Shown: piece by piece, positions 1-15,660 of the stretch
Numbering within the stretch: the stretch's first letter is position 1
Layout: every line of letters begins with the position of its first letter
NCBI GenBank assembly: GCA_964406665.1
Contig: CAYOSQ010000010.1
Location: 2,870-66,869, forward strand
Reading direction: 5' to 3'
Origin: an uncultured Planctomycetia bacterium
GTDB lineage: Bacteria; Omnitrophota; Gorgyraeia; VGKH01; JBHPFN01
Length of the DNA stretch: 64,000 nt
Notes under the pieces: generated by a model
Database searches by the model: none
Seen by the model: the letters and a program-made list of their open reading frames with translations, nothing else
Told to the model about the DNA's origin: nothing
Made by a program: the position numbers and the translations under genes

Positions 1-844
1 TGAATGGAAGCGACAATTTCTTGAAAGTCAACTTTCTAAATGGTACTTTGTCAAAACATAAGCCGCCATAAATAATATCATGAAAATTATTCATTAAATT
101 TAATGTTTCAATCAATGTTTTGTACCATCTGAATTTTTTTGCCTGTTTAAAAATTGCATCAAAATTAACAGCAGGAATAAGATTAAACAGATATATTAGC
201 TCTGAAAAAGTCATGTGCAGCGGTTCAAAATTCATATGGGCAAGATGGATTAAGAAATCAGCACTCGCATTTGGAATTACAATCTCTTTTCCAAAGAAAA
301 TTACTTTTCTCGGGTTAGAAATGATAAAATCCTCATTCATAAAATAGGTCCAAGCCCAAGTAATAGAACTTTGTAGATGAATCTTTGCCTGATCTTGCTT
401 TAACAAACCAACCGACTTTTCTTTTTTATCGTAGTTTTCAATTTCGTATCCCATAGAAACAAAAGAAGACATCGCAGAATCAAAATCATTTACCAAAACA
501 TCTATATCGCTAGGGATTCTTTCAAAGCCTCTATATGTTTTAAAAATTATACCCTCATTAACATGTTCATTTATCTCATCAATGCTTTTGCGCATTGCAG
601 TTATTTTTAATTTAGCGTCAGAAATTATTTTCTCAAATCTGTCTTTTTTGGCAAAAGATGATTCTGCCTTGGCAGAAATCTTTTTCATAACATAAAATAA
701 AATATTATTGCGTGAAGCACTATCAACAAATTTATCAACATCTACTTCAGAAATATCAATATCACTCGCTGAAGATTTTCTATATAAATCTTCAGTAAGC
801 TTTACAATTAACTGTGTTTCTTTATTTAGCTTATTCACAATCAT
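1..844 (-). CDS. Nucleotidyltransferase-family protein (NTP_transf_5-like), C-terminus cut by window edge; not in the ORF track because no stop lies in the window
   Basis: Reverse-strand ATG at 842-844 opens a frame that runs off the window start with no stop. Translation MIVNKLNKETQ...IIFKTYRGFERIPSDIDVLVNDFDSAMSSFVSMGYE...LIHLAHMNFEPL resembles the uncharacterised nucleotidyltransferase family (conserved D-x-D-hhV then a hLHhxxH motif). The stop is 3 nt from the next gene start, giving an operon fit. Confidence 0.45.
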   Translation of the reverse strand, partial: MIVNKLNKETQLIVKLTEDLYRKSSASDIDISEVDVDKFVDSASRNNILFYVMKKISAKAESSFAKKDRFEKIISDAKLKITAMRKSIDEINEHVNEGIIFKTYRGFERIPSDIDVLVNDFDSAMSSFVSMGYEIENYDKKEKSVGLLKQDQAKIHLQSSITWAWTYFMNEDFIISNPRKVIFFGKEIVIPNASADFLIHLAHMNFEPLHMTFSELIYLFNLIPAVNFDAIFKQAKKFRWYKTLIETLNLMNNFHDIIYGGLCFDKVPFRKLTFKKLSLPF

Positions 845-847
845 TTT

Positions 848-1822
848 CTATTCAAAAAACCCTATGTTCTTATTTTGCTTTATTAATTTTTTGTAAGAAT
901 CAACTTGCCTAGAAATCTTAAGGCCATCTTTTATACCTTTCAACATTGTAGAGATTTTTTTGGGATAAGTATTTTTATTGTATAAATTCTTAATAAGGTT
1001 TACACAAAATGGTATCATGACAGCAAACAGTTTTGATATAAAATACTGAAAGATATTCTTACTCCAAAGAGCCTGAGCAATAATAATACTTCTAGTACCA
1101 TAATAATAAATTTCATATTTATTTGCTAGAGACCCTGTAGATCTATCGTGCCAAACTTCTGCTGAAGGTAAACAAAAATTCTTATAACCTAAAAATCTTA
1201 ATCTCATACAGAAATCTAGCTCTTCATGAAAAAATGGAAATAATTCTGAATTAAAATACCCTGCTTGTTGAATAACTTTTTTTCGTATCATAAAACTAGT
1301 CAACAAACAATCGCACTCAATTATACTTTCCCTTATCTCTACGGCTTGCCTACCCTTATAAGGAAAAGCAGCTATACCGGTCCAAATATTCATTCTTGCT
1401 CCAGCAGACCAAACTTTACCATGGTCATTATGTTCACATATCAAAGGACCTAAAGCTCCCGTGTTTCTGTTTTCTTGGAAATATTTAACTAGCTCAGGCA
1501 AAGTATCACTATCTAAATATACGTCATCATCGACAAAAAATATATACTCCCCCTTCGATTGCTTAATTCCTCTATTGCGTGATTTAGAAACAAGCTCTGA
1601 TTTGCTATTTCCTAATAGCATAAGATTGTTATAATTTCCGTACTTATCTTTTACTACTTCTGAGGTATTATCAGTAGAGGCATCGTCAATGATAATAATT
1701 TCCATCCTGCTCTTATCATAATAAGACTTTTCAATTGAGCTTATCAGGCGAAGCAACTTCTCTACCCTGTTGTGAGTTGGAATAATAAAACTAATGAAAG
1801 GTAATGTTTTAACAGTTTCCAT
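848..1822 (-). CDS. Family 2 glycosyltransferase
   Basis: N-terminal FISFIIPTHNR...EIIIIDDASTDNT and DXD-like FFVDDDV, a classic GT-A/GT2 signature. Confidence 0.8.
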   Translation of the reverse strand: METVKTLPFISFIIPTHNRVEKLLRLISSIEKSYYDKSRMEIIIIDDASTDNTSEVVKDKYGNYNNLMLLGNSKSELVSKSRNRGIKQSKGEYIFFVDDDVYLDSDTLPELVKYFQENRNTGALGPLICEHNDHGKVWSAGARMNIWTGIAAFPYKGRQAVEIRESIIECDCLLTSFMIRKKVIQQAGYFNSELFPFFHEELDFCMRLRFLGYKNFCLPSAEVWHDRSTGSLANKYEIYYYGTRSIIIAQALWSKNIFQYFISKLFAVMIPFCVNLIKNLYNKNTYPKKISTMLKGIKDGLKISRQVDSYKKLIKQNKNIGFFE

Positions 1823-1823
1823 A

Positions 1824-3056
1824 TTACTTTGACATCTTCTCTAAAGTATTACTATAAATATTCTCCCAAGAATGTTTTCTTGCTTTATCTATTACTTTTA
1901 ATCTGATACTCTTAAATAATATTTTATCTTTTAAAAGAGTTAAACAATGTTCAGCAATATTTTTTGCATCAAAATCTACCACGAATCCTAAGTTTTCTTT
2001 ATTAATCTCCTCAGAAAGAGGAACTGCGCTTGTAGTTATAACGGGTAAACCACAAGCAATATAATTTCTTATTTTGATGACATCGCTGTAAAGTTTTTTG
2101 GAAAAGGGAACCGGCTTATATGGAGCAACAGCAACATGAGATTTAACCAACAGTTTATCTACCTCCTCTTGATTATTAAAATGACCGGCGATAATTACAT
2201 TATTTAATCCGTATTCATTAATTTTTTGTTGCATTTCTTCAAAACAATCTCCGTCACCAACGATGACTAACTTAAAATCTCCAGAGCTTTTGGCTATCTC
2301 TCTAGCAATATCAGGTAGCAACATTGCACCATTTTCTTCTGATATATATCCTGAGTAAACAATTGTATTTGGATTCTCAGCAATTTCATCATTTACCAAA
2401 TTTTCTCTAAATGGCATCCCATAAGGAACGGTAATTTGCCTGCCCATTCTTCTTTCACTAAACTTTAAATTCTGAATTCGTGCATTAGCAATACTATTTG
2501 AAATATTCCAAATATAATTAGAATGATAACAAGCAAACTTATCGAAAAATAAATATATCGAATTAAAAATAGGATTTAAAAACCACTTTATTGACCAATC
2601 AAAGATATAATAAACGACATTCTCGATCTTAAGATAGTTTCTAACCCAGCTCCCAGCAACCGCATTTACTGATTCAACTCCAAAATAAATACATATTGGT
2701 TCATCCTTTACAAAACGTCTGATAATTTTTGAAAAATACAATACGCTGACAAAATCTCTTATCTTAAGCCTCAAAGAAGTTTTGTTCATTCTTAACCTAA
2801 CTGGAATATTGAAAATAAAGTTATTAAAATAAAATTTTTCTTTTAAGACACCATTTTTATATATAAATAAAAATGGCGATAAAGAATCTTTCACATATGG
2901 CGGAGGTTGACCGATTAAGAAAAAATAATTAATCTTTTTAGAAAAATAATTAAGCAAAGGAAGCGTTGGTCCACTTCTTAGATTAAACTCACCATCTACA
3001 AGATGTGCGTGAGTAGCCAGAATCACATTTTTATCTTTAAGATTTTCTATATCCAT
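1824..3056 (-). CDS. Family 1 (GT4-like) glycosyltransferase
   Basis: C-terminal GT-B donor-binding region (EEVDKLL...VAVAPY...ACGLPVITT). Overlaps the upstream gene by 10 nt. Confidence 0.65.
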   Translation of the reverse strand: MDIENLKDKNVILATHAHLVDGEFNLRSGPTLPLLNYFSKKINYFFLIGQPPPYVKDSLSPFLFIYKNGVLKEKFYFNNFIFNIPVRLRMNKTSLRLKIRDFVSVLYFSKIIRRFVKDEPICIYFGVESVNAVAGSWVRNYLKIENVVYYIFDWSIKWFLNPIFNSIYLFFDKFACYHSNYIWNISNSIANARIQNLKFSERRMGRQITVPYGMPFRENLVNDEIAENPNTIVYSGYISEENGAMLLPDIAREIAKSSGDFKLVIVGDGDCFEEMQQKINEYGLNNVIIAGHFNNQEEVDKLLVKSHVAVAPYKPVPFSKKLYSDVIKIRNYIACGLPVITTSAVPLSEEINKENLGFVVDFDAKNIAEHCLTLLKDKILFKSIRLKVIDKARKHSWENIYSNTLEKMSK

Positions 3057-4015
3057 AACTTATGATGCAATTTAATGCTTTCTATGCTTTTATCAGTGCT
3101 TGATGAACGCAATATGTAGAACTTTGTCTTTTTAAATAAAGACAATAAGATTTCTCTCTGAGCTTTCTGTGTCCCTAAAAATGAATATCCGTCTTCCACA
3201 TAAGGAACGAATGACAATAATCTTTCATTAAAATAAGGAACTATTTTATTATTGATTACACATAATTTTTCAACACCTATTTCTGCATTAACTTCCTCAA
3301 TACAATTTGATGAAGACTGCTCTAGAAAATAAACATCAGGATACCCTTTAAATTTTTCTGAAATTCTGTCTTTATATTCTTCAGCCGGATCCAAGAATTT
3401 ATGAATACTCACTGATGCTAAATTATACTTTCTTATTTTTATCATTGAAGGAAAATTATAAATTTGGTCTCCAGAAATAATCATTAAATCATCACAGATA
3501 AACTGGCAGTCAGTATTATCCATCAACGAAAGAATAGTTGTGGTCTTACCAGAACCATAAGTACCCGTTAAAATAATTCCCTTGTCTTTTGAAACCACCA
3601 TTCCACCAGCAACAAACATACATTTTTTAGCCAAAAGCTTCATCTGCATAATCATCTTAACTAAGGGTTCTAGTTGATAAACAGATGAAACTGGGACTTT
3701 AAAAACATGTTGGGAAATAAATTTATATGAACTACTAAATTCAAATTGCGTATTTTCCTGTAAAAGATTCTTAATTGACCAAGAAACTCTCAATCCTAGA
3801 ATATTCAAGTTCGAAACAATCTCGTTAGCATCCTTAGAATAATAGAGTCCATGAGCAATCTGTTGAAACTTAGATTTATCAATACGCTTATAGGGAACTT
3901 CTTTTATTATTAAATTATATTTACTCAAATCTTCTTCTTTTCTGAAATAATTTAGACGCAAATCAATATCCGATTTTACTGTTAAAAAGTTATGAATATT
4001 ATAAATATAGCTCAT
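3047..4015 (-). CDS. HprK-related P-loop kinase-like protein (HPr kinase C-terminal-domain fold)
   Basis: VAGGMVVSKDKGIILTGTYGSGKTTTILSLMDNTDCQFICDDLMII parallels the HprK C-domain pattern hVxhxGxGVLIxGxSGxGKSExALxLIxRGHxLVADD. No other domain recognised. Confidence 0.45.
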   Translation of the reverse strand: MSYIYNIHNFLTVKSDIDLRLNYFRKEEDLSKYNLIIKEVPYKRIDKSKFQQIAHGLYYSKDANEIVSNLNILGLRVSWSIKNLLQENTQFEFSSSYKFISQHVFKVPVSSVYQLEPLVKMIMQMKLLAKKCMFVAGGMVVSKDKGIILTGTYGSGKTTTILSLMDNTDCQFICDDLMIISGDQIYNFPSMIKIRKYNLASVSIHKFLDPAEEYKDRISEKFKGYPDVYFLEQSSSNCIEEVNAEIGVEKLCVINNKIVPYFNERLLSFVPYVEDGYSFLGTQKAQREILLSLFKKTKFYILRSSSTDKSIESIKLHHKLWI

Positions 4016-4025
4016 TGACTTCCTT

Positions 4026-5525
4026 TCATAAATGTATCAATGCCCTAATCGGCTCTAAAACTGTACTCCAGCCATAATTTTTCAGCAGCAAAAAATTTCT
4101 TTTCATAAATCTTAATAGCCATACAGGATCAATAACTTTATGAAGAACCATAGATTTTATTGCTTTTTTCCGAAATGCCTCGATTTCATCTGCCTTTAGC
4201 CCTTCTCCATCAAAGGCGCAGGTTAAAGTACCATCAAACGCATCCCAATCTTCTTTCTTAAGACTGCCACGCTCAATTAATTTTTTATAATATCTCGTTC
4301 CAGGAAAAGGTGTGGTAATCGAAGTCTGAGCAGTATCAAACTTTATTCTATTAGCAAGTCGTAAGGTTTCTTCCATGGTTTCTTTAGTTTCACCATCAAG
4401 CCCAAATGAAAAGGTTGCATGAGTTAATATTCCATACTTCCTGCACCAATTAGCTACATCAACCGCCTTTTCAGGATTAAGCGGCTTTCCAATATTCTTT
4501 AAAATCTGTTTATTGCCGCTTTCCACCCCAAACTTCATAAATATACATCCAGCTTCTGCCATAGATTTTATCATCTCTTCATCACAAGCCATGGCATCAC
4601 CCATGCAAGACCATTTAATCTTAAGGCCTCTTTTATTTATTTCATTACAAATTTCTAAAACATGATTCTTATTAATGCAAAAATCGTCATCATCAAAATA
4701 TATCTCTTTAGCGCCATAATTTTTTATTACGTGCTCCATTTCATCAACAACACGCTTTGGTTCAAACATCCTGTAGGGGCCGTTGTCATACATAATTTGA
4801 TTCCACATACAAAAATCACATTGAAAAGGACATCCTCTTGAAGAATGCAATGTCACTGCAGGCCAATATGTACAAATTCCATCGCGATAAATTGCAAGAT
4901 CCGGGCCATCGTTTATAGGAAACAAATCAAAAGCAGGGTATGGTAAAGAATTAATATCTACAATAAATCCTTTTTTCTCAGAAACCCAAACTTCTTTTGT
5001 TGTCCTATAGCCTAAACCTTGAAGCTTCAAATCTTTTTTATTTGATTGAAGCCTTTTAACCAATTCTAGAACAGTAAATTCATATTCACCTAAAGCAACA
5101 AAGTCTATAAAATCGTTAGCTGAAATCAATTCACTGGCAAATTCGGTAGCATGTGCCCCAGAAAGCAATATATAAGAATTTGGCAATGCATCTTTTATCT
5201 TTTTACAAAGTGATAAATCATGATTTATTGCATGCGTTGCAGTTTCAATAACAATTAGATCAGGAGATACTTCTTTTACTCTATTTAAAAAATCATCCTC
5301 CTGCATATCTAAGGCAACGCCGTCAATCACAGAAACACCAAAACCAGCATCTCGTAAAATATTTGCAGCATATGCAAGAAAGAATGGAAAAAAACAATTA
5401 GTGTTCTTGTCTTTTTTATTCTTTACACAGGACCACGGCCAACGACTACCAGCTTTAATAAAATAGCGTTCTCGCTTCTTGTCAATTGATACTCTTGTAG
5501 CTGGATTAGTCAATAATATTTTCAT
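4026..5525 (-). CDS. B12-binding domain radical SAM enzyme (class B rSAM), paralog 1
   Basis: N-terminal Rossmann-like B12-binding region, then SSRGCPFQCDFCMW (CX3CX2C). Confidence 0.85.
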   Translation of the reverse strand: MKILLTNPATRVSIDKKRERYFIKAGSRWPWSCVKNKKDKNTNCFFPFFLAYAANILRDAGFGVSVIDGVALDMQEDDFLNRVKEVSPDLIVIETATHAINHDLSLCKKIKDALPNSYILLSGAHATEFASELISANDFIDFVALGEYEFTVLELVKRLQSNKKDLKLQGLGYRTTKEVWVSEKKGFIVDINSLPYPAFDLFPINDGPDLAIYRDGICTYWPAVTLHSSRGCPFQCDFCMWNQIMYDNGPYRMFEPKRVVDEMEHVIKNYGAKEIYFDDDDFCINKNHVLEICNEINKRGLKIKWSCMGDAMACDEEMIKSMAEAGCIFMKFGVESGNKQILKNIGKPLNPEKAVDVANWCRKYGILTHATFSFGLDGETKETMEETLRLANRIKFDTAQTSITTPFPGTRYYKKLIERGSLKKEDWDAFDGTLTCAFDGEGLKADEIEAFRKKAIKSMVLHKVIDPVWLLRFMKRNFLLLKNYGWSTVLEPIRALIHL

Positions 5526-5538
5526 ATACGATTTACTC

Positions 5539-7257
5539 TTATTTGATGTTCGGATCTAGTGATTCAGCTATAACCTGATAAACTTCAATATCATCGAATT
5601 TCCTAACAAATCTTAAGCCATTATTAACGGAAATTCCTTCAATCTTCTTTCCTTCTTCAATGTCATCATTATCTTTATACCATTTAACATTAAGCAAAAC
5701 AAAATCAGCTCCTAACCAACTTAAAATACCTGCAGAATCTTCATCTCCTAAATTCTCTATTTTGTGCAGTATTTTATTTGCCCTACTTCCCGGGACAGTT
5801 CCATTAACCATCCTTTTCTGATGAATTGTTTGATAAAAATTATACTTTGCATTTTGCCCATCTAAGTCCAGTGGATATTGAGCGATAACTATTTCTTCTG
5901 GTTGAACCTTAACCCAATCGTAAACCTTAGGATACTGAGTAAGATCAATAACTTTAGAAGGTGGATAATTCATGAATTCGAAAAGGACTAATAAAACAAA
6001 TAAAATAGTTGTAGAAATTTTCAGCTTATCAGCCTTCAATCTTTCTAAAATAAACTTCATCCCAAACCCTACCAACATTGCAAGAGAAAACATTACAACT
6101 ACTCCAAAGCGACAATATGCTCTAAACATTGGCAGTATTTTATACATAAAATAACTTGGCATAAAAATTCTAAACGGCCCCCATCTCCACCAAGGAGGTT
6201 GAGAAAAAAACCAAGCTGCAATACTTAAAATAACAAAAAAACCAATATAAAATCTTTCCTGTTCAGAAAAGCCTTGTTTTTTCTTCCATAAACTAAAAGT
6301 CAAAACCCCTAAAACCAATGGAACCCATCCTAAATACAGTGCGTGTTCAATTAAGCTCTTCCCATAAAAAGAAGAACCGGCAAATTTCTCAGTAAAAGAC
6401 CCAAATAAAGGATGATAAACAGTTGGCAAAAAGTAACTAAGAGGCCTTGCAGCCTGATTAAATAAATCATCAAAAGGACGATGATAAGGATTAAACGCCG
6501 AAGGAGAACTTCCAACATGAGAACCTGACGCAGAAACTATCTGTAAAATTTGAGGAATTAAAATAACAAAAGCTACTGATAGAAGAACAACCATACCACC
6601 TAAATACCTCTTATTTATCTTCCAATTCCCCATAAGATAAACAAGAAATATGCCCATTATAAAAGCAGAATAATAAGCAACGCCAAAATTAATCGAAGAG
6701 AAAGCAAAACAGGCAACAAAAATTACTTTCAAATAAAGTTTATTTTCTTCTCTTAGTCGAAACCCACTCCATAACAAAAAAGGTATAGGCCATAAAAATG
6801 TTTCAGCCATAAGTTGCCAAGAGTGAACAATAATATAAGGACAAAAACCAAAAGTTATTCCGGCAACAATACTACTTAATTTATTCTTAGTAATATAATT
6901 AGCTAATAAATAAGTAAAAAAAGCAGTTAAAAAAATACTTCCTACAATTTGAATGTTGTAAGTAGCGATTGGAGAAAAAACAAGCGACAAAATAAAATTG
7001 GTAAATGTAAAAATAAAATTTATTGGTCTATTAGCATAAACATCAACACCAAAAGGATATCCCCAGAAAAAAGTGCTCTCTGCAGATATATTATTAGCAA
7101 AAGAAAACTTCAGCCACCAGGCACCCCAAATCGAAGAAAAAGGTTCATTACTAATAGAGCAACCAGCTATATGACTATTCATATTAAAGGCTAAAGGAAA
7201 AGTCACAATAGAAGTTAAAATCAAAAATAATAATATTATTAGTACATAGCGCTTCAT
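5539..7257 (-). CDS. Large polytopic membrane protein with C-terminal soluble domain (GT-C / YfhO-like architecture; candidate glycan transferase or polymerase)
   Basis: About 12 hydrophobic segments over ~420 aa followed by a ~150 aa hydrophilic C-terminal domain. No motif-level assignment. Confidence 0.35.
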   Translation of the reverse strand: MKRYVLIILLFLILTSIVTFPLAFNMNSHIAGCSISNEPFSSIWGAWWLKFSFANNISAESTFFWGYPFGVDVYANRPINFIFTFTNFILSLVFSPIATYNIQIVGSIFLTAFFTYLLANYITKNKLSSIVAGITFGFCPYIIVHSWQLMAETFLWPIPFLLWSGFRLREENKLYLKVIFVACFAFSSINFGVAYYSAFIMGIFLVYLMGNWKINKRYLGGMVVLLSVAFVILIPQILQIVSASGSHVGSSPSAFNPYHRPFDDLFNQAARPLSYFLPTVYHPLFGSFTEKFAGSSFYGKSLIEHALYLGWVPLVLGVLTFSLWKKKQGFSEQERFYIGFFVILSIAAWFFSQPPWWRWGPFRIFMPSYFMYKILPMFRAYCRFGVVVMFSLAMLVGFGMKFILERLKADKLKISTTILFVLLVLFEFMNYPPSKVIDLTQYPKVYDWVKVQPEEIVIAQYPLDLDGQNAKYNFYQTIHQKRMVNGTVPGSRANKILHKIENLGDEDSAGILSWLGADFVLLNVKWYKDNDDIEEGKKIEGISVNNGLRFVRKFDDIEVYQVIAESLDPNIK

Positions 7258-8321
7258 TGCTCGCTATTCCTCTCCTCTTTGACAAACTCAACAAACCTAA
7301 CCCCTATGCCGATTAATAAACAAAAATAAGCAACATTAGCAACTTGAACAGCAATAAAATCTAAGTTAAGTAAAAGTAATAATGCGGACAGCAAAAGAGA
7401 AACGATAAAGACAGAAAGACACTTTTCGAAAAGTTTTCTTGAATAAAACCACAGAGCTACAAAAATAATAATCTTATAGATCCTGGGAACATTAAATCTC
7501 CCAAGCAATGCCTCTCTTTCTTGACTATTCTCAAGTTTCTGCCGAATAAGCTTCTTTCCATTTTTTTTGAAAATTCTATACCAAATTACCACTTTGCTGT
7601 TTATTTCTCTCAATATAAATACGCTAAAAAGAAAAAATTGTGTCATACCTATTACAGATATACATAAAACAGAAAAATATCCTATGGAAATGACAACATG
7701 ATGTGGAGAGAATATTGAAAAAATATAAATCAATAACTCTAATAAAATACACATTGCAAGAGAACAAAAATATATAGATTTAATTTTTTTAAAGGAAAAT
7801 TGTAAATATTCTTTATTGAAATGTAAAATTAGTATCCAACTACCCAAAAATAAGCAAAGAACTATCACAACAATTGAAATTAATCGGATGACACCCAAGT
7901 GTCTCTTTTCAAAAATTGGGGATGAATCAAATAAAATATAAGCCCTTCCCGATTCTAGTTTGCCGTAATAGTTTCTAATTTTAATACTATAGTCACTTGC
8001 GCTGATAATATTTAAATAATTACTTCTTTTTTTAATATTTTCTGAAGACAACTCAAAATAAAGCTCCTTGCTTTCACCCCTATCTCGAGAATGAAAAGAC
8101 GATATTGGTTCATTATTAAAATAAACTGCTTCGGGCCATTCAAGTCCCCATATTTTCAACAAATAAGTATCCTTTTCAGGAAAATTAAGATTAACTCTCT
8201 TAACATCAAAATACTTTTCGTCAAAATCTTCAAATTTACCAATTACAATATTGCTTTGAAAAAACGTAAAAGTTAAGCTGAAAACTATAATTAGAAACAA
8301 TATTTTCTTCTGCACTAACAT
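7254..8321 (-). CDS. Hypothetical membrane protein
   Basis: Signal/TM segment at the N-terminus and 5-6 hydrophobic helices in the C-terminal half. Start and stop overlap the neighbouring genes. Confidence 0.35.
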   Translation of the reverse strand: MLVQKKILFLIIVFSLTFTFFQSNIVIGKFEDFDEKYFDVKRVNLNFPEKDTYLLKIWGLEWPEAVYFNNEPISSFHSRDRGESKELYFELSSENIKKRSNYLNIISASDYSIKIRNYYGKLESGRAYILFDSSPIFEKRHLGVIRLISIVVIVLCLFLGSWILILHFNKEYLQFSFKKIKSIYFCSLAMCILLELLIYIFSIFSPHHVVISIGYFSVLCISVIGMTQFFLFSVFILREINSKVVIWYRIFKKNGKKLIRQKLENSQEREALLGRFNVPRIYKIIIFVALWFYSRKLFEKCLSVFIVSLLLSALLLLLNLDFIAVQVANVAYFCLLIGIGVRFVEFVKEERNSEQ

Positions 8322-10174
8322 CTTTTCACCTTTTTATACACGAACCTCATTAACAAATACACTAGACTCACAACGAGTGCAACAATGGAAATTATAAAAC
8401 CAATGTAAAAATAACTTTGGGGAGAAAAATAAATCACTAGATTAAAATCTTTCTTTTCTCCTAGGCTAATCGGCTCCAAATACCATCCATTGGCATATCC
8501 ATTAACTTTATAATGAGGAGCGCTTATTTGCTTTCTGAATAAATAAGCAATATCTTGAAAAACAAATTTCAAAAACTGCTTAATCTCTTCCGAATGCAAA
8601 GAATTAGAATATCTTTGGGAAATCATTGCAGTTTCCGACAGATTTGAAGCATTATTTTGATAAGAATATAATCGCCATTGTTGATGAAAGCGCTCACCAA
8701 ACACTAACCAAAAAGGTTCAGTCGCTCCCCTAATTTTAACCAAATATTTAGTAGGGTTTATTCTTTTAAGAGAAATTTTTGCTCCATTGCTAATTATATT
8801 TTCTTTATTTTTTGAGAAACATTTAAAAGCAACAGAGTCGACATCAAATGTCTGATTCTCAAACTTTTTGAAAGTATGCTCTCCTTTGGATAACTCAATC
8901 TTCTTAGAAAGCTTATTTACTTCAAAAAGCTCATGTTTTTTAGGTTCGTTGAAATCATCAAGATAAAACATACTTCCATCAATTTCTATCAAAGGAAAAT
9001 TAATGTTTTTGACTAAAGAAAGAAATCTTTCTTTTTGATCTTTTGATAATAAAGGATATGCAAACTTAGTAAATAATTTCAATTTACTGATTCCGAGATT
9101 AAATCCATAATCTACAGGGTATCTAAAAGAAACAATCAAAAACTTTAAATCATTAATATTAGAAATAAGCTTAGGAATATCAAGTTCAATATATCCCGGA
9201 TCTCTTGTGTATTTCTCGGGCGAAAGTATAATAGTTTTATCAGAAAAGTCCCCTTTAACAACAATAGCCAAATCTATTTTTTGGACTTCAGGATTAGTTA
9301 AAGTATACTCAAAAGAAAATAGAGGAAAGTTTTTAACATCTTTATCTACTAAACTAATATAAACCTTTGTTCCTAAAAAACCACCTGGCTTAATGGTAAT
9401 GTCATCTTTCTTCTCAGTTACTTGACTATTTATTTCTTCATCTTCAAAAAATAAATCTTTCTTATGAAAAGTATTTTTTTCTAATATTAAAGAACGTTTG
9501 CTGTAAAAACTAATTTTTTCCAAGCTCGGGTTAGATTTTTGTCTTAGTTCATCGTTTTCAGGAATATTCTGTATCAAAAAAATTACCTCTCTAAGAATAT
9601 AGCTTTCAATTTTCCTCAAGTCTCTTCCTTCTTCTATAGCCATTTGCAGAATATCGACCTCACCAAAATCATCAATTCTTATATACCTATCTATTTTTTT
9701 ATCTCCAAGATAATCTATACCTAAAAAACAAGATACATATCCTCCGATAAATTCTTCTCCGAAAGAAAAGAAGGGAAATTCTTCAATATTTATCTCAACA
9801 TTGCGGCTTAACACTCCCGCTTTTCCATCCGGTAAATAAATTTCCAAACTATCTTTTGCTGGAATTAAAAACTCACCCTCTTCAGAAAATTCAGTAGTTT
9901 TTAATTGATTTATAATCTGATCATTGCTAAAGAAATAAGGATATAATTCTACGAATTCACTCAGGCGAGTAGTGCGAAAGCACCAATTAGGCAAATCATC
10001 ATCCCAGTTGAGAAATTTCTCTGCCCTCCAATATGTTTTAATCTCAGCTACTTTTGGAGTTAGTTTCAATTTTAGCTCATGTGCTTCTACACAATAAGAA
10101 AACAGTGTTAAAATTAAAACGCTAACAAATAAAATTATTACTTTTTTGTAAATCATTTTAAATATTTTCATCAT
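8315..10174 (-). CDS. Hypothetical exported protein with N-terminal signal peptide and C-terminal TM anchor
   Basis: MMKIFKMIYKKVIILFVSVLILTLFSYCVEA signal-like N-terminus. Long hydrophilic body. C-terminal IGFIISIVALVVSLVYLLM followed by basic residues. Confidence 0.35.
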   Translation of the reverse strand: MMKIFKMIYKKVIILFVSVLILTLFSYCVEAHELKLKLTPKVAEIKTYWRAEKFLNWDDDLPNWCFRTTRLSEFVELYPYFFSNDQIINQLKTTEFSEEGEFLIPAKDSLEIYLPDGKAGVLSRNVEINIEEFPFFSFGEEFIGGYVSCFLGIDYLGDKKIDRYIRIDDFGEVDILQMAIEEGRDLRKIESYILREVIFLIQNIPENDELRQKSNPSLEKISFYSKRSLILEKNTFHKKDLFFEDEEINSQVTEKKDDITIKPGGFLGTKVYISLVDKDVKNFPLFSFEYTLTNPEVQKIDLAIVVKGDFSDKTIILSPEKYTRDPGYIELDIPKLISNINDLKFLIVSFRYPVDYGFNLGISKLKLFTKFAYPLLSKDQKERFLSLVKNINFPLIEIDGSMFYLDDFNEPKKHELFEVNKLSKKIELSKGEHTFKKFENQTFDVDSVAFKCFSKNKENIISNGAKISLKRINPTKYLVKIRGATEPFWLVFGERFHQQWRLYSYQNNASNLSETAMISQRYSNSLHSEEIKQFLKFVFQDIAYLFRKQISAPHYKVNGYANGWYLEPISLGEKKDFNLVIYFSPQSYFYIGFIISIVALVVSLVYLLMRFVYKKVKRC

Positions 10175-10965
10175 TCAGTAACAATGAATTTACCTTTATT
10201 TTTTGTAAACAAATAACTTAATGCTGTATCAGAGCTACTTAAAATTTGGATAAGTTGATTTTCCGTAACTTCTCGTTTGCTTTTACTAACAAGATAGAAC
10301 TTAAGACGCTTTTGATTCTGAGCTCTATAATTGAAATAAAAAACTGATATTGCGTACTCTCCTTTTCTTCTAAATTCAAATTCGCCTAATTTCTTATAAT
10401 TTATACTGCCATCCGTCAAAAGGCTTAATCTAGAAATAAACTCACCATTTACTTTTACAGCAAACTTGACTGATTCTTCCTCTTTTTCTGAAACATCATA
10501 AAAAAATTCATATACTCCAGAATCGTTAATATTTACCTTGGTCTCCTTACTTATAAATTCATCCCTACCTGGAAAAATGTCCACAGAATAACCTATATTC
10601 TCTATTAAAAAATCTTCGTAATTCGAATCAACAAAAATAAAATTGACAGCGCTTACTAAATATTTGGGAATATCTTCGACAATGCGTCTTTGAGCTTGTT
10701 TTTTTAATGCTATAATTGGCGATTCTCTATTTTCTCTTATTGTCATAATCAATTCACAAGAATTAATATCGCCATTATTAATAACTGTTGGCTTATTGGC
10801 ACTAAAAAAATAGCTGCTTTCACCTCCCAGCCATGATTTATTATCCACTCCCCTCTCATCCGCAAAACAAATGACAGATACTAATACAGTCGCTGTAACA
10901 ACTAAAAAGATTAATGATTTTAAGTTAAGTGATTTCATTTTAGTATAAGATTCAATATTACTCAC
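10171..10965 (-). CDS. Hypothetical exported protein
   Basis: N-terminal hydrophobic signal (LIFLVVTATVLVSVICFA). No recognisable domain. Confidence 0.35.
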   Translation of the reverse strand: MSNIESYTKMKSLNLKSLIFLVVTATVLVSVICFADERGVDNKSWLGGESSYFFSANKPTVINNGDINSCELIMTIRENRESPIIALKKQAQRRIVEDIPKYLVSAVNFIFVDSNYEDFLIENIGYSVDIFPGRDEFISKETKVNINDSGVYEFFYDVSEKEEESVKFAVKVNGEFISRLSLLTDGSINYKKLGEFEFRRKGEYAISVFYFNYRAQNQKRLKFYLVSKSKREVTENQLIQILSSSDTALSYLFTKNKGKFIVTE

Positions 10966-12738
10966 CTACATATCCTTATATTCAAACATAACAAAATACT
11001 CATTTTCCAAAACCAACCCCAACCATTTTTCCTTAAATGCTTCATCCATTAATTTCTTTATAAGTAAACCAGAATTCTTTCCATAAGCCATCGAACCTAT
11101 CGATTTTTCTTCTGAATAATCCCGATGAATAATTACATATCTTACGGAAGCTACCTTTAACTTATTTTTTAACCAAGAAAAATTTGAAATTAGATACGGC
11201 GAATCGTTGAATTTTATAATTTCTGGAAATAAAGACATGTTTCCGCCACTATCTCCTATCGTTGGCAAATACGTTAAGCGATTCACAATATCCGGCATAT
11301 GCAGATCTGGCCACCATTTATACACAACATAACTTTCTTTAACCCAGGGTAAAGTAAGTATCCTCTCTCCGATTTTTATATTATTTTTTAAATAATCCCG
11401 AAGGTCATAATATTCTTTCGGAATCTTAACATAGGGAATATGATTTTGTGTAAGAAGGGGAATTCTTTCGGGCAATATAAAAGACTTTCCGTGAACAAAG
11501 ATTATAAGAGTAAACAAAAATGCAAAACTAATACTTTTATAACGAGTAACGCGAAATTGCGATAATTTAAGGCCATCGAAATGCTTCCATAATATTTCAG
11601 TTGATACTCCCAAGAGGACTGCTAGAAAAATCGGAAAGAAAACTAAGCAGTAGTTCGGATCTACTAACGTTATAAAAAGACCGATTTTTCCAGAAAGAAA
11701 AGCGTATATTTTGGTGGTTAAACCAAAATAAGCAACAGTAGATAAAACCATCGCCGCAGCAGCCAATAATGAAATAATAATAGCTTTTTCCCTCTCTTTT
11801 TTATAGCTAACAAATAAAAAGGGTATAAAAGCATATATCGGGAAGAATAATGTCAATGCTTTAATAAGAGGATTGGAAAAATAAATCCCCATACCATTGC
11901 CTTTATGTCCTAATAGCCTAAATACAAATAACGGAGTTCCAACCCCCATTTCATGATATCCTTGAATATAGCTAGAGCGAGTTTGTAGCACCCCTTCAGA
12001 AGAAGCAAATTCGGATGAGTTGCTTTCAATGAAAGTTCCTACGGCAGGAACCAAAATATATGCGTTAATCAATAAAAACATTACAAATAAAATTACTAAT
12101 GTCTTTTTATGAATTACCAACTTTTTATAACCACGGATTATTAAAAGAAGTGCTATAAATAAAGCAATAAATAGCATGACTATAGCGGTGAATCTCACAA
12201 CTATTAATGTTAAAGAGATTCCTATAGCAGCGATTACAGAATATTTAAACCTTTCTTCAGAATTAAAATACACTAAGCGAAAGATTGCCCCAAGCGTCAT
12301 CATGTTTCCAATCATACCGATCTGCCATAAAGGAGGCAACTGAAAAGGTATTAACATAATATAACTCGCAGCAATAAGACATCCTAAATATGAATACCGC
12401 TCCCTAAATAAACTTCGGTATAAATAACACATTGATATGCCTGTCAAAAAAGAAGGAAGAAGTAACCATAATCTGTTCATAATCCACAAAGGTATCTTGA
12501 GGAAACTAAGGATATAAACCACTAATGCTACTGGAAAGGTATTTGAAATCAAATTAGGATAGCCGAATGGATCTTGGATATTCCAAGAATAAATACTGAC
12601 TTTAAAATAATCCTGGGGACTAAATGGAAAAACTGAATCTACTCCATTGTAAAATGTATCTTTCTCAAAAAAGTTAGGGCTAAACCAAATAGCAAAACTT
12701 ATTAAAAGAATTATGACAATAATCAGATATTTCATCAT
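10966..12738 (-). CDS. Large polytopic membrane protein (candidate GT-C-fold transferase / polymerase)
   Basis: More than 12 hydrophobic segments spanning ~430 aa plus a hydrophilic C-terminal domain. Abuts the preceding gene with zero spacing. Confidence 0.4.
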   Translation of the reverse strand: MMKYLIIVIILLISFAIWFSPNFFEKDTFYNGVDSVFPFSPQDYFKVSIYSWNIQDPFGYPNLISNTFPVALVVYILSFLKIPLWIMNRLWLLLPSFLTGISMCYLYRSLFRERYSYLGCLIAASYIMLIPFQLPPLWQIGMIGNMMTLGAIFRLVYFNSEERFKYSVIAAIGISLTLIVVRFTAIVMLFIALFIALLLIIRGYKKLVIHKKTLVILFVMFLLINAYILVPAVGTFIESNSSEFASSEGVLQTRSSYIQGYHEMGVGTPLFVFRLLGHKGNGMGIYFSNPLIKALTLFFPIYAFIPFLFVSYKKEREKAIIISLLAAAAMVLSTVAYFGLTTKIYAFLSGKIGLFITLVDPNYCLVFFPIFLAVLLGVSTEILWKHFDGLKLSQFRVTRYKSISFAFLFTLIIFVHGKSFILPERIPLLTQNHIPYVKIPKEYYDLRDYLKNNIKIGERILTLPWVKESYVVYKWWPDLHMPDIVNRLTYLPTIGDSGGNMSLFPEIIKFNDSPYLISNFSWLKNKLKVASVRYVIIHRDYSEEKSIGSMAYGKNSGLLIKKLMDEAFKEKWLGLVLENEYFVMFEYKDM

Positions 12739-12759
12739 TGGTCTCTTCCTAAAATCAAC

Positions 12760-14508
12760 TTATTGAACTTCATAAACTCTCCATAACACCGCTCCGGAAG
12801 GAGCATAAATAATAAACGGGGTTAGCTCTGGATGAATTTTCTCAAAAATAACACGATAATTATCGTCCGTTTTATATTGCCACCCCTCGGGTAACTGCGT
12901 GTAAGAAACAAAACAATAATAGATTCTATCACTTTCCTTTTTAAGATTAGATTCACGCTCGAGCCAATCTTCTTTTGTTACAGAAGGAGCATCTATAAAA
13001 TCGGGGAATGTAAAAAATTCATTCGTTAATGATATAACTTCAGGAACATTTCCAGTAAAAAGACGCATTAACATATTATGGAAATATGCATTATATGTAG
13101 TAAATACAATCTTCGTTGCCTTGGAATATCCCTTCTCAGCAATGTATTCGTAGGCTTTATAAGTACCTGCAGCAGAGATGCTATGATAATAATTCTTTTT
13201 AGGTAGAAATTGAAAAATCCAAAACACTCCAGAAAAAATAGATGACAAAATAATGAAAAGCGATATGAAACCTACCAATACATTTTTTGATAATTTCTTA
13301 AATTTACTATGTATATATTCTCCAATCGGATATACTGAGCGAGCCGCTAAAATAAACATTGGCGGAATTATCCAAACGCAAATATTCTTTAATTTCATTA
13401 CGATAATAAAAGAGTAAAAAACTAAAAAAGTGCTAAACCAAATCAGAGAAAAAATATCCTCTTTCTTTCTTTTTTTCGAAGAAACCCAATAACCAATTAA
13501 AAAGAAAAATGAAACTACATAATTATACATAAGAGGAACACCCGGAGGCTCAATTGAATAATGTCCTCCCAGGCTCTTTCCATTGATGAATACTCCTAAG
13601 AAAAACATTTTAAAATTCAACAACAAGCGCTTAATATCGAACAAAACCATCCCGTATATTGAATGAGATGCTGACTTATGACTAGCAAAATATGATTTAA
13701 AAAAACCAAGAGCTACACTCTCAGATAAGTTGAAGTATAAGTAACGCAAATAATCGAGAATAAAAGCAGAAAAAACAGCAACAATTAAAAACAAGGCAAA
13801 ATAAGATATATATGGACGTATCTTTTTTATAGTATATGCATTCCATGCACAATATATAAAAAGAGCCAAAGGTATCATGAAAGAACCGGTGAAAAAAGAA
13901 AATGATAAACTCATGCCAGAGAATATACCCGCAAGAATAATAAAATGTTTATTTTTAAATCTTTCTGCAAGCAAGAATAAATAAATAATCAATAAACTAA
14001 AAACAATATTGTGCCCCCGCAAAAAAGGATCAATTACATTAAAGTGAAGAAATACATGGGGAGAAAAAACAATTAAGACGCCAGCTATAAGTCCAACGAT
14101 TGGACCATATAATAAATTCCCGATAAGAAAAGTAAGCATAACAACGCTTATTCCTAAACAAGAGATATACACCCTATAGGCAAGCCATAGCTTAACATCC
14201 TTGAAACCAAAGATCTTATAAAAACAATGCGCAGGCAAGTTTCTATAGCTATTCCAAGACAGATTATCCATTACTTTCTTTTTATCGCCAAAAAACTCGA
14301 GGAGAAAAGGATCATCTTTAGCGGCAATAATCTGATTCCAATCTTCGTGTCTGGCTTGATCTTCATATTCAATAAGAAGCAGTTGGTAAGGATTAGAAAA
14401 AAATAAGTTTGTTTTTCCATAATCAAAAAAACTGAACGTTACAGAAATAAGCAACAAAACAAAAAAGCAAAGCCATGCTTTTCTATTAAAAATATTTCCT
14501 TCAGACAT
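12760..14508 (-). CDS. Large polytopic membrane protein (ArnT/PMT-like GT-C architecture, candidate lipid-linked sugar transferase)
   Basis: N-terminal TM followed by an acidic loop (YEDQARHEDWNQ...DDPF). About 11 more TM segments, then a ~140 aa C-terminal soluble domain. Confidence 0.4.
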   Translation of the reverse strand: MSEGNIFNRKAWLCFFVLLLISVTFSFFDYGKTNLFFSNPYQLLLIEYEDQARHEDWNQIIAAKDDPFLLEFFGDKKKVMDNLSWNSYRNLPAHCFYKIFGFKDVKLWLAYRVYISCLGISVVMLTFLIGNLLYGPIVGLIAGVLIVFSPHVFLHFNVIDPFLRGHNIVFSLLIIYLFLLAERFKNKHFIILAGIFSGMSLSFSFFTGSFMIPLALFIYCAWNAYTIKKIRPYISYFALFLIVAVFSAFILDYLRYLYFNLSESVALGFFKSYFASHKSASHSIYGMVLFDIKRLLLNFKMFFLGVFINGKSLGGHYSIEPPGVPLMYNYVVSFFFLIGYWVSSKKRKKEDIFSLIWFSTFLVFYSFIIVMKLKNICVWIIPPMFILAARSVYPIGEYIHSKFKKLSKNVLVGFISLFIILSSIFSGVFWIFQFLPKKNYYHSISAAGTYKAYEYIAEKGYSKATKIVFTTYNAYFHNMLMRLFTGNVPEVISLTNEFFTFPDFIDAPSVTKEDWLERESNLKKESDRIYYCFVSYTQLPEGWQYKTDDNYRVIFEKIHPELTPFIIYAPSGAVLWRVYEVQ

Positions 14509-14516
14509 ACATTCTC

Positions 14517-15647: not shown

Positions 15648-15660
15648 GAATGATATACAT

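Follow-up and report, generated by a model that had tools for sequence, protein, structure and literature searches.

Described kinase and nucleotidyltransferase pairs

Phospho-substituents are made by several routes that combine a kinase, a nucleotidyltransferase and a transferase, including LicA/LicC/LicD for phosphocholine, Cj1415–1418 for MeOPN, and Fom1/Fom3, in which the B12-binding radical-SAM enzyme Fom3 works on a substrate carrying the cytidylyl handle added by Fom1. HprK-related kinases are also found in radical-SAM/SPASM peptide loci, and P-loop regulatory kinases are often encoded in polysaccharide loci. In the biosynthesis of the lasso peptide pseudomycoidin, the HprK-type kinase PsmK puts a phosphate on a Ser, and PsmN, an uncharacterised nucleotidyltransferase in the source paper, is needed for the one to two hexoses on the phosphate; PsmK D158A/D159A is inactive, and Asp 134 and Asp 136 of PsmN are essential (PMC6993621). 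In a family of phosphonate small-molecule clusters, a thymidylate-kinase-like gene (Tmk) and a PF14907 nucleotidyltransferase gene together flank PEP mutase (PMC8942020). The first-pass annotation of the DNA described here called its kinase and nucleotidyltransferase a recurring but functionally undefined pair. The recurrence stands, as set out below, and the second half of the description is partly outdated, the roles of PsmK and PsmN having been studied in pseudomycoidin biosynthesis (PMC6993621, PMC8498205).

A conserved gene set in a surface-glycan operon

The window, the whole 64,000-nucleotide stretch that was analysed, comes from an uncultured Candidatus Omnitrophota bacterium and carries a giant operon of the cell-surface-sugar type with more than 45 genes. 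Pfam annotation places a Wzx-like flippase, sugar-nucleotide enzymes and many glycosyltransferases in this operon, and found no PEP mutase (phosphonate) gene in the locus. Five consecutive minus-strand ORFs at the window start belong to the cassette considered here, and are listed with their motifs and the neighboring membrane protein:

1..844, minus strand: PF14907 (NTP_transf_5) nucleotidyltransferase-fold protein, N-terminal 281 of 337 aa, with the C-terminus beyond the window edge
491..508, minus strand: DIDVLV (DxD) putative metal-binding motif, residues 113–118, with Asp 113 and Asp 115 invariant in the alignment
848..1822, minus strand: GT2 glycosyltransferase, 324 aa, soluble, with an FFVDDDV motif (Pfam Glycos_transf_2, 98.5 bits)
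1824..3056, minus strand: GT1/GT4 glycosyltransferase, 410 aa (Pfam Glycos_transf_1, 67.7 bits)
3047..4015, minus strand: PEPCK/HprK-fold P-loop kinase-like protein, 322 aa (AF2 model and Foldseek)
3488..3493, minus strand: DD pair after the P-loop helix, Asp 175 and Asp 176, aligning with the HprK 'DD' pair
3542..3565, minus strand: Walker A loop GTYGSGKT, residues 151–158, with Gly 156 and Lys 157 invariant in a 53-sequence alignment
4026..5525, minus strand: B12-binding radical-SAM enzyme, 499 aa (Pfam B12-binding and Radical_SAM)
4809..4832, minus strand: CxxxCxxC radical-SAM cluster motif CPFQCDFC, residues 232–239
5539..7257, minus strand: 572-aa polytopic membrane protein with about nine TM-like segments and a C-terminal soluble domain (TM scan)

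The Pfam assignments agree with the earlier description of two glycosyltransferases and a B12-type radical-SAM enzyme beside the kinase and nucleotidyltransferase. Adjacent genes overlap by 4–10 nt (10 nt between the GT1/GT4 and kinase genes), which suggests translational coupling. A hydropathy scan found no TM-like segments in any of the five proteins, consistent with soluble, cytoplasmic enzymes.

These genes had been placed last in the run, as the operon's distal end. That placement is an artefact of the window edge, since the 88 kb JGI contig Ga0115649_1000937, which matches the window with no mismatches over 14,015 nt, runs past position 1 into at least eight more co-directional genes. 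Beyond the edge, the NTP_transf_5 gene is completed to 337 aa, and after it come genes for a GT4, a thymidylate-kinase-like protein, a membrane protein of 611 aa, a DUF3108 protein, a GT4, a GT2 and ManC, in that order. The thymidylate-kinase-like gene lies two genes past the window start; it is absent from the first-pass annotation and is the third recurring partner. Its product belongs to the thymidylate kinase family (Pfam, 40.3 bits), its profile matches the TMPK structure 2yof in the PDB (E 2e-17), and both the P-loop and the DR[YF] motif are kept.

The product of 1–844 had been read as an NTP_transf_5 protein with a DIDVLV motif, and it indeed scores 37.3 bits against PF14907, above the gathering cut-off of 31.2; the full-length copy in locus L001 scores 36.3 bits and orthologues in L018, L009 and L016 are 37–40% identical. 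Within the cassette, conservation is highest for the B12 radical-SAM enzyme, 71–73% identical to its L009 and L018 orthologues, whereas the other members of these loci are 31–48% identical. Its best NCBIfam match is HpnJ at 238.7 bits, below the cut-off of 577.6. Orthologues of the GT1/GT4 enzyme (34–52% identical) adjoin family kinases in L012, L013, L009, L018 and L007, and the GT2 enzyme shows only weak orthology to GT2s in L009 and L018, at about 30% identity over about 110 aa. The 572-aa membrane protein has no Pfam, NCBIfam or PDB sequence match. It is co-conserved with the cassette, being 40% identical to a 609-aa protein of L018, and the 611-aa protein beyond the window start is its paralogue.

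The kinase and its recurrent neighborhood

Searched as a single sequence, the kinase scores far below every relevant cut-off: 22.5 bits against HprK_rel_B (cut-off 200), 13.5 bits against HprK_rel_A (200), 14 bits against Hpr_kinase_C/PF07475 (33.3) and 14.7 bits against TIGR00679 (240). It gave no match to the Pfam PEPCK_ATP model. The HprK-related A and B models proposed earlier as a check were matched only weakly. An AF2 model built with the 53-sequence alignment as input reached a pLDDT of 96, and all 50 listed Foldseek matches to PDB structures are ATP-PEPCK or HprK/P. The best is a whole-length match to ATP-PEPCK (E 1.7e-7, TMq about 0.5, identity about 11%), and the N-terminal domain of the model resembles the PEPCK substrate domain. 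HprK/P (1kkl, E 4.4e-6, 3.5 Å rmsd) superposes its C-domain on the P-loop core over 113 columns, with 3.4–3.5 Å rmsd and 17–18% identity among the HprK/P matches, which bears out the predicted resemblance to that domain. In the alignment to 1knx, LSDD of the kinase falls on VGDD, and Asp 176 is nearly invariant. The likeness to HprK is thus real, as judged from the predicted model, and is visible only at the level of profile and fold; it is the model and the Foldseek matches, not the single-sequence HMMs, that place this P-loop protein in the HprK/PEPCK kinase superfamily, as had been supposed. A generic AAA/ABC fold for 3047–4015 was rejected because the matches listed are all ATP-PEPCK or HprK/P.

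An exhaustive search recovered 1283 representative relatives of the kinase at E ≤ 1e-3. Neither Pfam nor NCBIfam has a model dedicated to the subfamily, whose members weakly match the HprK_rel_A/B, hpr-ser, FomB, ScmC and PEPCK models. One member, P0113, has an N-terminal membrane extension that is putatively GtrA-like and hints at a lipid-linked acceptor.

We examined the gene neighborhood of the family kinase in 14 independent metagenomic loci. All 14 are rich in glycosyltransferases, and seven have PF14907 only a few genes away from the kinase, so the supposed pairing of kinase and nucleotidyltransferase is recurrent and non-random. The recurring neighbors are PF14907 (NT5 below), the thymidylate-kinase-like gene, the B12 radical-SAM enzyme and a GT4, usually a GT2, and often a membrane protein of about 600 aa. 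The radical-SAM gene (rSAM), often directly adjoining the kinase, is mainly of the B12 type and in sugar contexts. The gene orders are as follows:

window and L001: rSAM-kinase-GT1-GT2-NT5-GT4-Tmk
L009 and L018: rSAM-GT1-GT2-NT5-kinase
L014 and L016: Tmk-kinase-NT5
L007 and L017: Tmk-kinase-rSAM
L020: NT5, Tmk and kinase together
L021: GT4-NT5-kinase

Neither PF14907 nor the Tmk-like gene was seen in L023 and L024, and many contigs end too soon to show whether these genes are present. The suggested fusion of the cassette onto a glycan locus fails because the kinase subfamily was seen only in loci rich in glycosyltransferases among the 14 examined.

Proposed function and its alternatives

A phosphorylation or nucleotidylation step on a glycan, as first suggested, fits this context, and the likely task of the cassette is to attach to a glycan, and not to a peptide, a unit that is phosphate-linked or nucleotide-activated. 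The five genes seen in the window belong to a conserved cassette of probably cytoplasmic enzymes in a Wzx-type surface-glycan operon. Our tentative preference, held at rather less than even confidence, is that a relay from kinase to nucleotidyltransferase in this cassette makes or attaches a phosphate-linked sugar unit. The kinase would phosphorylate a sugar-type small molecule at a hydroxyl group, and the PF14907 enzyme would join the phosphate with an NTP to give an NDP-linked, nucleotide-handled intermediate, along the lines of LicA/LicC, or of Fom1, which adds the cytidylyl handle needed by the B12 radical-SAM enzyme Fom3. The B12 radical-SAM enzyme might then tailor this intermediate by C-methylation or rearrangement, and the dedicated GT4 and GT2 would move the product onto the lipid-linked glycan. 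The Tmk-like enzyme, whose role here is pure inference, could re-phosphorylate the released NMP or add a second phosphate. The relay would resemble either PsmK/PsmN phosphoglycosylation or Lic/Fom-type nucleotide activation. A small-molecule relay is favored because the kinase matches PEPCK over its whole length and, as a family, the FomB and PEPCK models besides those of HprK, and because the Tmk and PF14907 pair independently flanks PEP mutase (PMC8942020).

Several observations count against a small-molecule relay, among them the putative GtrA-like extension of P0113 and the two loci with neither PF14907 nor Tmk. We also know of no substrate, product or activity within the kinase subfamily. 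The one comparable pair studied genetically, PsmK/PsmN, modifies a macromolecule directly and not a free small molecule (PMC6993621). Almost as probable as the small-molecule relay is that the kinase phosphorylates a hydroxyl on the growing lipid-linked oligosaccharide, or on its carrier, and that the PF14907 enzyme builds a sugar or nucleotide on this phosphate, the resulting phosphodiester branch being extended by GT4 and GT2. PsmK followed by PsmN is the only experimental precedent for such a pair (PMC6993621; reviewed in PMC8498205), and the DD and DxD motifs whose mutants are inactive there (PMC6993621) are both kept here. Direct phosphoglycosylation would also suit the apparently membrane-anchored P0113, the alkaline-phosphatase-superfamily (Phosphodiest/Sulfatase) genes in the related loci L020 and L021, and the faintly AftD-like GT-C protein that adjoins Tmk-kinase-NT5 in L015 and L016. 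It leaves the constant thymidylate-kinase-family partner unexplained, however, and over its whole length the kinase is closer to small-molecule PEPCK than to HprK. PsmN is likened to the PF14907 enzyme by analogy only, and even in the source paper PsmN is no more than a candidate for the glycosyl-transferring enzyme (PMC6993621).

The remaining explanations are much less probable. A kinase with a regulatory role, comparable to HPr kinase or the capsule BY-kinases, that controls the output of the glycan machinery by phosphorylating one of its proteins, beside unrelated PF14907 and Tmk neighbors, would fit the frequent presence of P-loop regulatory kinases in polysaccharide loci. HprK/P and the lasso kinases do phosphorylate Ser on proteins or peptides (PMC8498205). 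We consider this quite unlikely given the tight, order-shuffled co-conservation with a nucleotidyltransferase, an NMP-kinase family, radical SAM and GT4 in diverged loci, the PEPCK-like substrate domain, and the lack of an HPr-like or other obvious protein-substrate gene. That independent accessory enzymes merely lie side by side is very unlikely; an operon of this size offers many chance juxtapositions and cross-locus GT2 orthology is weak, but the same set recurs in varied orders among loci with proteins of only 26–48% identity, and the overlaps suggest coupled translation. A role for the kinase and nucleotidyltransferase in tailoring a ribosomal peptide, with its gene close by or past the window start, is extremely improbable. 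The proposal could draw on the HprK-related kinases of radical-SAM/SPASM peptide loci, on the weak HprK_rel_A/B and ScmC matches of the family and on the radical-SAM gene often beside the kinase. Lasso loci, too, contain HprK-related kinases (PMC6993621, PMC8498205). The HprK_rel_A/B scores are nevertheless about 10% of the curated cut-offs. Intergenic gaps are at most 89 nt in the glycan run and at most 23 nt over the 7 kb that follow past position 1, where a PqqD-like or small precursor ORF had been suggested; no sign of a RiPP, and no lasso or SPASM-peptide machinery, was seen. Pfam annotation, which covered 49 of the window's 52 large ORFs and these 7 kb, detected no lasso cyclase, B1/B2 or PqqD, and neither these nor a protease or peptide ABC exporter occur in the window or the 14 loci, where all neighbors are sugar or glycan enzymes; the sole SPASM radical-SAM enzyme of the window is likewise surrounded by sugar enzymes.

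Comparison with known systems

By analogy, the cassette resembles the PsmK/PsmN and PadeK systems of the lasso peptides pseudomycoidin and paeninodin in combining an HprK-type kinase with an 'uncharacterised nucleotidyltransferase'. With PsmK/PsmN it shares the kinase DD pair and nucleotidyltransferase DxD motif, and would share the order of phosphate first and building on the phosphate second. It differs in its Wzx-type glycan operon without lasso machinery or precursor peptide, in its extra constant partners (Tmk-like, B12 radical SAM and GT4), and in a kinase with a PEPCK-like N-terminal domain that scores below every HprK model cut-off. HprK-related kinases A/B (TIGR04352/TIGR04355) and ScmC (TIGR04249) belong to the same superfamily, are the best NCBIfam matches of the window kinase and many family members, and like these often lie beside radical-SAM genes. 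The cassette is set apart from those radical-SAM/SPASM peptide cassettes by scores of 13.5–22.5 bits and by a radical-SAM partner mainly of the B12 type, in a sugar context without PqqD or a peptide partner.

HprK/P shares the P-loop core and the aligned G-x-G-K-[ST] ... DD pattern, but has a different N-terminal domain and an HPr or PTS context that is lacking here. ATP-PEPCK, the best whole-length structural match, is larger (about 530 aa against 322 aa). Several family members match the PEPCK and FomB (fosfomycin-monophosphate kinase) models, both of small-molecule kinases; the locus has no phosphonate (PEP mutase) gene. The Lic, Cj1415–1418 and Fom routes use different enzyme families (choline kinase, GlmU/LicC-type nucleotidyltransferases and APS-kinase-like proteins), and the analogy with them, which is functional only, would lie in a shared logic of kinase, nucleotidyltransferase, NMP/nucleotide-kinase-type P-loop enzyme, tailoring and glycan transfer.

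Gene content of the cassette and of the glycan run

The five genes at positions 1–5525 are tightly spaced, with gaps of 1 to 10 nt or a 10-nt overlap, and a hydropathy scan found TM-like segments in none of the five products.

Genes of the cassette (position, strand, product, Pfam score)
1–844, minus: PF14907 (NTP_transf_5) nucleotidyltransferase, 281 aa inside the window, cut by the window edge; 37.3 bits, cut-off 31.2
848–1822, minus: GT2 glycosyltransferase, 324 aa; 98.5 bits
1824–3056, minus: GT1/GT4 glycosyltransferase, 410 aa; 67.7 bits
3047–4015, minus: P-loop protein, 322 aa; no family over threshold with single-sequence HMMs
4026–5525, minus: B12-binding and Radical_SAM protein (B12-rSAM), 499 aa; both domains by Pfam

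The ORF positions, the Pfam scores and the DIDVLV and CPFQCDFC motifs bear out the five gene calls of the first-pass annotation and its four easy family assignments. All 52 large ORFs of the window (52/52) are on the minus strand, GC skew is negative in all 2-kb bins with a GC content of 30–39%, and there are no tRNA genes in the 64 kb. The DnaK encoded at the window end is 73–77% identical to DnaKs all named Candidatus Omnitrophota.

The 88-kb JGI contig Ga0115649_1000937 (L001) carries the kinase sequence and shows no mismatch to the window in the shared 14,015 nt. Past position 1 it encodes, in the same direction and with gaps of at most 23 nt, the remainder of the PF14907 gene, a GT4, a thymidylate-kinase-family (Tmk-like) protein, a 611-aa membrane protein, a DUF3108 protein, a further GT4, a GT2 and ManC. 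Because these genes continue on the same strand, the glycan run reaches from about 51.4 kb through position 1 and on for at least 7 kb, and the placing of the cassette at the distal end of an operon was an artefact of the window edge.

The glycan run encodes UDP-sugar dehydrogenases, epimerases/dehydratases, a UDP-GlcNAc 2-epimerase, an acetyltransferase, a carbamoyltransferase and many SAM methyltransferases, together with about ten GT2/GT4 proteins and a Wzx-like flippase. It also contains eight B12-rSAM genes and one SPASM radical-SAM gene, co-directional on the minus strand, which is an unusually heavy radical-tailoring load for a polysaccharide locus. None of these radical-SAM genes reaches any NCBIfam cut-off, the best matches being to HpnJ, BchE and P-methyltransferase models at about 25–45% of the cut-offs.

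Radical-SAM genes and large unassigned genes of the run
B12-rSAM, minus: 4026–5525, 17307–18725, 18743–20164, 23057–24451, 24455–26050, 32371–33783, 42428–43918
SPASM radical SAM, minus: 20186–21307
Large proteins without a significant Pfam or NCBIfam family, minus: 5539–7257, 7254–8321, 8315–10174, 10171–10965, 10966–12738, 12760–14508, 15661–17301

Most proteins of the unassigned block (5539–17301) are polytopic membrane proteins with about 6–9 TM-like segments, and they may be GT-C-like polymerases or transferases. The first of them, of 572 aa (5539–7257), has the 611-aa protein past the window start as a paralogue and a 40–44% identical orthologue near the cassette in the related metagenomic locus L018; a profile of the 572/611-aa protein found no relative among PDB sequences. 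A 677-aa fusion (27560–29593, minus) joins a GT1/GT4 domain (residues ~207–361) to a SAM methyltransferase domain (~469–589). Directly upstream of the run, with a 59-nt overlap into the first gene call, lies a gene for an LptD-like outer-membrane protein (51336–53534, minus), from which we conclude that the organism has an outer membrane. Two tandem GGDEF diguanylate cyclase genes lie further upstream (55177–56187 and 56175–57470, minus), one with a GAF domain, and may give c-di-GMP control over the surface glycan.

Family and fold of the kinase-like protein

The P-loop protein at 3047–4015 had been taken for an HprK-like kinase. As a single sequence it scored 13.5 bits against HprK_rel_A (TIGR04352) and 22.5 bits against HprK_rel_B (TIGR04355), where the cut-off is 200, and for HPr kinase/phosphorylase (HprK/P) it reached 14.7 bits with TIGR00679 (hpr-ser; cut-off 240) and 14 bits with PF07475 (Hpr_kinase_C; cut-off 33.3). 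Generic AAA, PilT and ABC P-loop models matched at levels similar to those of the HprK models. A word-indexed search of 5.8 billion proteins returned only four close relatives and a later word-indexed profile search only 3 more proteins; an exhaustive profile search gave 1283 representatives with E ≤ 1e-3, 155 of them with E ≤ 1e-10, and nearly all have lengths of 300–370 aa. The close and distant sets join over their full length in a profile–profile comparison (hhalign E 4e-43). A scan of genome contigs with the kinase gave one distant relative only, from Polyangia, a metagenome scan gave 3 loci, and tblastn with the kinase and the nucleotidyltransferase gave no match in PLSDB plasmids.

None of 131 scanned family members reached any curated family cut-off. 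The best HprK_rel_A/B E-values were about 1e-8 to 6e-10, still far below the cut-off, and the weak matches fell almost exclusively within one superfamily.

Models matched by family members (53-sequence alignment A2; 78-member set A3)
HprK_rel_A: 17/53 in A2, 55/78 in A3
HprK_rel_B: 22/53 in A2, 37/78 in A3
hpr-ser: 7/53 in A2, 19/78 in A3
ScmC: 5/53 in A2, 12/78 in A3
FomB: 6/53 in A2, 3/78 in A3
PEPCK models: some members in A2, some in A3
Hpr_kinase_C (PF07475): 9/53 in A2 at E < 0.01

The AlphaFold (AF2) model calculated with the 53-sequence alignment has a pLDDT of 96 and a pTM of 0.92; it supersedes a run with a 4-sequence alignment that was unusable at pLDDT 48.7. The 4-sequence profile, compared with PDB sequences, likewise returned P-loop noise only, such as KaiC. 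Foldseek found 59 PDB matches to the model at E ≤ 0.001, of which the best 50 are all ATP-dependent PEP carboxykinase (PEPCK) or HprK/P, with probability 1.00 and E-values from 1.7e-7 to 7e-5. Among the matches listed, PEPCK structures align across the whole length of the protein (TMq ~0.5, best E 1.7e-7), and the match to the HprK/P C-domain covers about 113 columns with an rmsd of 3.4–3.5 Å and 17–18% identity. The Walker A loop GTYGSGKT comprises residues 151–158 and is followed, after a helix and a strand, by the pair D175–D176; an HMM alignment with M. pneumoniae HprK/P (1knx) spans the strand, the Walker A loop, the helix and this "DD" pair. G156 and K157 never vary in the family alignments, and D176 is at least 90% conserved.

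Since the best 50 of 59 Foldseek matches of the pLDDT-96 model are to PEPCK and HprK/P only, the HprK "DD" pair aligns and G156, K157 and D176 are conserved, the reading of the P-loop as a generic AAA or ABC fold fails. At the level of the predicted fold the protein is a member of the PEPCK/HprK-like P-loop kinase superfamily, and to that extent the first-pass assignment stands; it does not extend to HprK_rel_A/B or HprK/P proper, and the protein is a branch of the superfamily for which there is no family model. No fusion of the kinase to the nucleotidyltransferase or to a Tmk-like domain occurs among 150 relatives. One relative from the exhaustive search, P0113 (522 aa), is extended at its N-terminus by about 140 aa of membrane sequence with repeated motifs of the type W-N-F..T..W-V-F-K-R that look GtrA-like; if the extension is GtrA, the fusion would tie the kinase to lipid-linked sugar handling.

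Partner proteins and conservation of the gene set

The full-length PF14907 protein from L001 (337 aa) scores 36.3 bits, which, with the 37.3 bits of the window fragment, exceeds the gathering threshold of 31.2 and upholds its identification as NTP_transf_5. DIDVLV (residues 113–118, window 491–508) is a putative DxD metal-binding motif of the pol-beta-type NTase fold, in which D113 and D115 are invariant in the nucleotidyltransferase alignment. A PF14907 profile found no match among PDB sequences. The Tmk-like gene lies at 15379–15987 of L001, about 1.4–2.0 kb beyond window position 1, so that this partner is not visible from the window alone. Its 202-aa product matches PF02223 with 40.3 bits (Pfam cut-off 27), its profile matches the TMPK structure 2yof (E 2.3e-17), and a P-loop GxDGxGK[ST]T and a DR[YF]F motif are conserved in its alignment; judged by sequence, its membership of the thymidylate kinase family is real at family level. 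The cassette B12-rSAM matches PF02310 (49.5 bits) and PF04055 (86.6 bits) and has the cluster motif CxxxCxxC as CPFQCDFC at residues 232–239. Its score against HpnJ (TIGR03471), 238.7 bits, is below the equivalog cut-off of 577.6, and the window's other seven B12-rSAMs give similarly sub-threshold HpnJ or BchE matches.

We compared 14 independent loci whose kinase members are 19–48% identical to the window protein, annotating the neighbours with precomputed Pfam matches, Pfam scans and HMMs built from the cassette proteins.

Gene content around the kinase (NT5, PF14907 nucleotidyltransferase; rSAM, radical SAM)
Window/L001: B12-rSAM, kinase, GT1, GT2, NT5, GT4, Tmk-like, 611-aa membrane protein
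L013: B12-rSAM, kinase, GT1
L009: B12-rSAM, GT1, GT2, NT5, kinase; Tmk-like further along
L018: B12-rSAM, GT1, GT2, NT5, kinase; Tmk-like and 609-aa membrane protein further along
L014, L016: Tmk-like, kinase, NT5
L007, L017: Tmk-like, kinase, non-B12 rSAM
L010: kinase, non-B12 rSAM
L012: GT1, kinase, B12-rSAM-like
L020: NT5, Tmk-like, 730-aa protein, kinase
L021: GT4, NT5, kinase
L023 (Wolfebacteria): GT-rich; NT5 and Tmk-like not detected
L024: GT-rich; two rSAM genes

No gene neighbours the kinase family more constantly than the Tmk-like gene, which directly adjoins the kinase in L007, L014, L016 and L017. The unit is larger than the first-pass annotation saw, with one constant partner outside the window; nor is the cassette a foreign insert in a glycan locus, as had been suggested, since each of the 14 loci compared for this kinase subfamily is a glycan locus. 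Cross-locus identity is 71–73% for the B12-rSAM and lower for the other proteins, at 26–48% for the kinase, 37–40% for NT5, 34–52% for GT1, 31–48% for the Tmk-like protein and 40–44% for the membrane protein. A short ORF fragment in L007 (3273–3464) matches the profile of the cassette-type B12-rSAM with 62 bits and, as this locus otherwise has the Tmk-like, kinase and non-B12 rSAM arrangement, may be the relic of a replaced B12-rSAM gene.

Possible function and relation to known systems

The proposed phosphorylation/nucleotidylation step on a glycan is judged to be right from the glycan context. Our preferred reading, held tentatively, is a relay that makes a sugar donor. The PEPCK/HprK-fold kinase would phosphorylate a sugar-type small molecule, and the PF14907 protein would link that phosphate to a nucleotide, giving an NDP-linked intermediate for the strongly constrained B12-rSAM to tailor; the GT4 and GT2 would then move the product onto a lipid-linked glycan, and the Tmk-like enzyme would handle the NMP or add a second phosphate. 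We favour this relay because the likeness of the kinase to PEPCK covers its full length and FomB is matched by members of the family, because a gene of the NMP kinase family is a constant partner, because Tmk and PF14907 also pair in a phosphonate small-molecule cluster, and because the Lic, Fom1/Fom3 and MeOPN pathways, which are precedents for a kinase followed by nucleotide activation, appear by analogy to share its logic.

The main rival, possible though rather unlikely, is direct phosphoglycosylation of the lipid-linked glycan in the manner of the kinase PsmK and the nucleotidyltransferase PsmN of the lasso peptide pseudomycoidin. It matches the sole experimental precedent: the HprK-type kinases PadeK, of paeninodin, and PsmK place a phosphate on the C-terminal Ser of lasso precursors, PsmN, an "uncharacterised NTP transferase", is needed for one or two hexoses on that phosphate, and mutation of DD in the kinase or DxD in the NTase gave inactive proteins (PMC6993621; review PMC8498205). 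The authors do not decide between PsmN being a new type of glycosyltransferase and PsmN supplying a host enzyme with its donor (PMC6993621). The possible GtrA-like fusion in P0113, as suggested by its sequence motifs, and the alkaline-phosphatase-superfamily and GT-C-like neighbours in related loci also speak for this rival. That the kinase is instead a regulatory protein kinase we regard as improbable, and chance co-location as quite improbable; the recurrence of the gene set, differently ordered, in diverged loci speaks for a functional unit.

A RiPP precursor or PqqD hidden nearby or past the window start had also been envisaged. The HprK_rel_A/B models are defined by a context of a PqqD-family protein, an rSAM/SPASM maturase and a small precursor. 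This peptide-modification context was not found, with no PqqD annotated by Pfam among the window ORFs or in L001 and no intergenic gap in the glycan run larger than 89 nt. Neither PqqD, lasso cyclase, B1/B2, peptidase nor peptide exporter was found by Pfam among 49 of the 52 large window ORFs, in the 7 kb past the window start or in any of the 14 family loci, and the Pfam annotation of the window, L001 and these loci contains no lasso cyclase (C), B1/B2, precursor peptide or ABC exporter; the search gave no sign of a hidden RiPP, which is extremely unlikely. Phosphonate decoration was considered in view of the FomB matches, the sub-threshold P-methyltransferase matches of the rSAM proteins and a published phosphonate small-molecule cluster in which Tmk and PF14907 form a pair beside PEP mutase (PMC8942020), so that this pair is also known from a small-molecule setting. 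It was rejected because PEP mutase and Ppd are absent among 49 of the 52 large window ORFs by Pfam.

A wider, and doubtful, proposal is that the kinase and PF14907 (here with the Tmk-like protein) form a general, substrate-agnostic "phosphate-then-build" system with which Omnitrophota, CPR and further uncultured bacteria would produce units of their envelope glycans, either sugar-phosphate-sugar (phosphodiester) or nucleotide-handled; PF14907 would represent a novel class of transferases that build glycans and have no relation to GT-A/B/C, Stealth and TagF, and the B12-rSAM would tailor sugars in a manner dependent on the nucleotide handle. The cassette suggests that the envelope glycans of uncultured phyla, Omnitrophota and CPR among them, involve a phosphate- or nucleotide-dependent step not recognised so far, and its compact, heterologously expressible set of six genes makes a tractable system for PF14907 function.

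The glycan-locus cassette is not described in any paper that literature searches brought up, and the one genetic precedent for pairing an HprK-type kinase with PF14907 comes from a lasso peptide. The glycan loci offer a second, far wider context for working out the function of PF14907, with a distinct kinase branch of about 1,300 representative clusters whose fixed partners there are PF14907, the Tmk-like gene, the B12-rSAM and GT4. The cassette is a variation on this known enzyme pairing, in which the kinase comes from a subfamily without a model of its own and is joined by Tmk-like and B12-rSAM partners.
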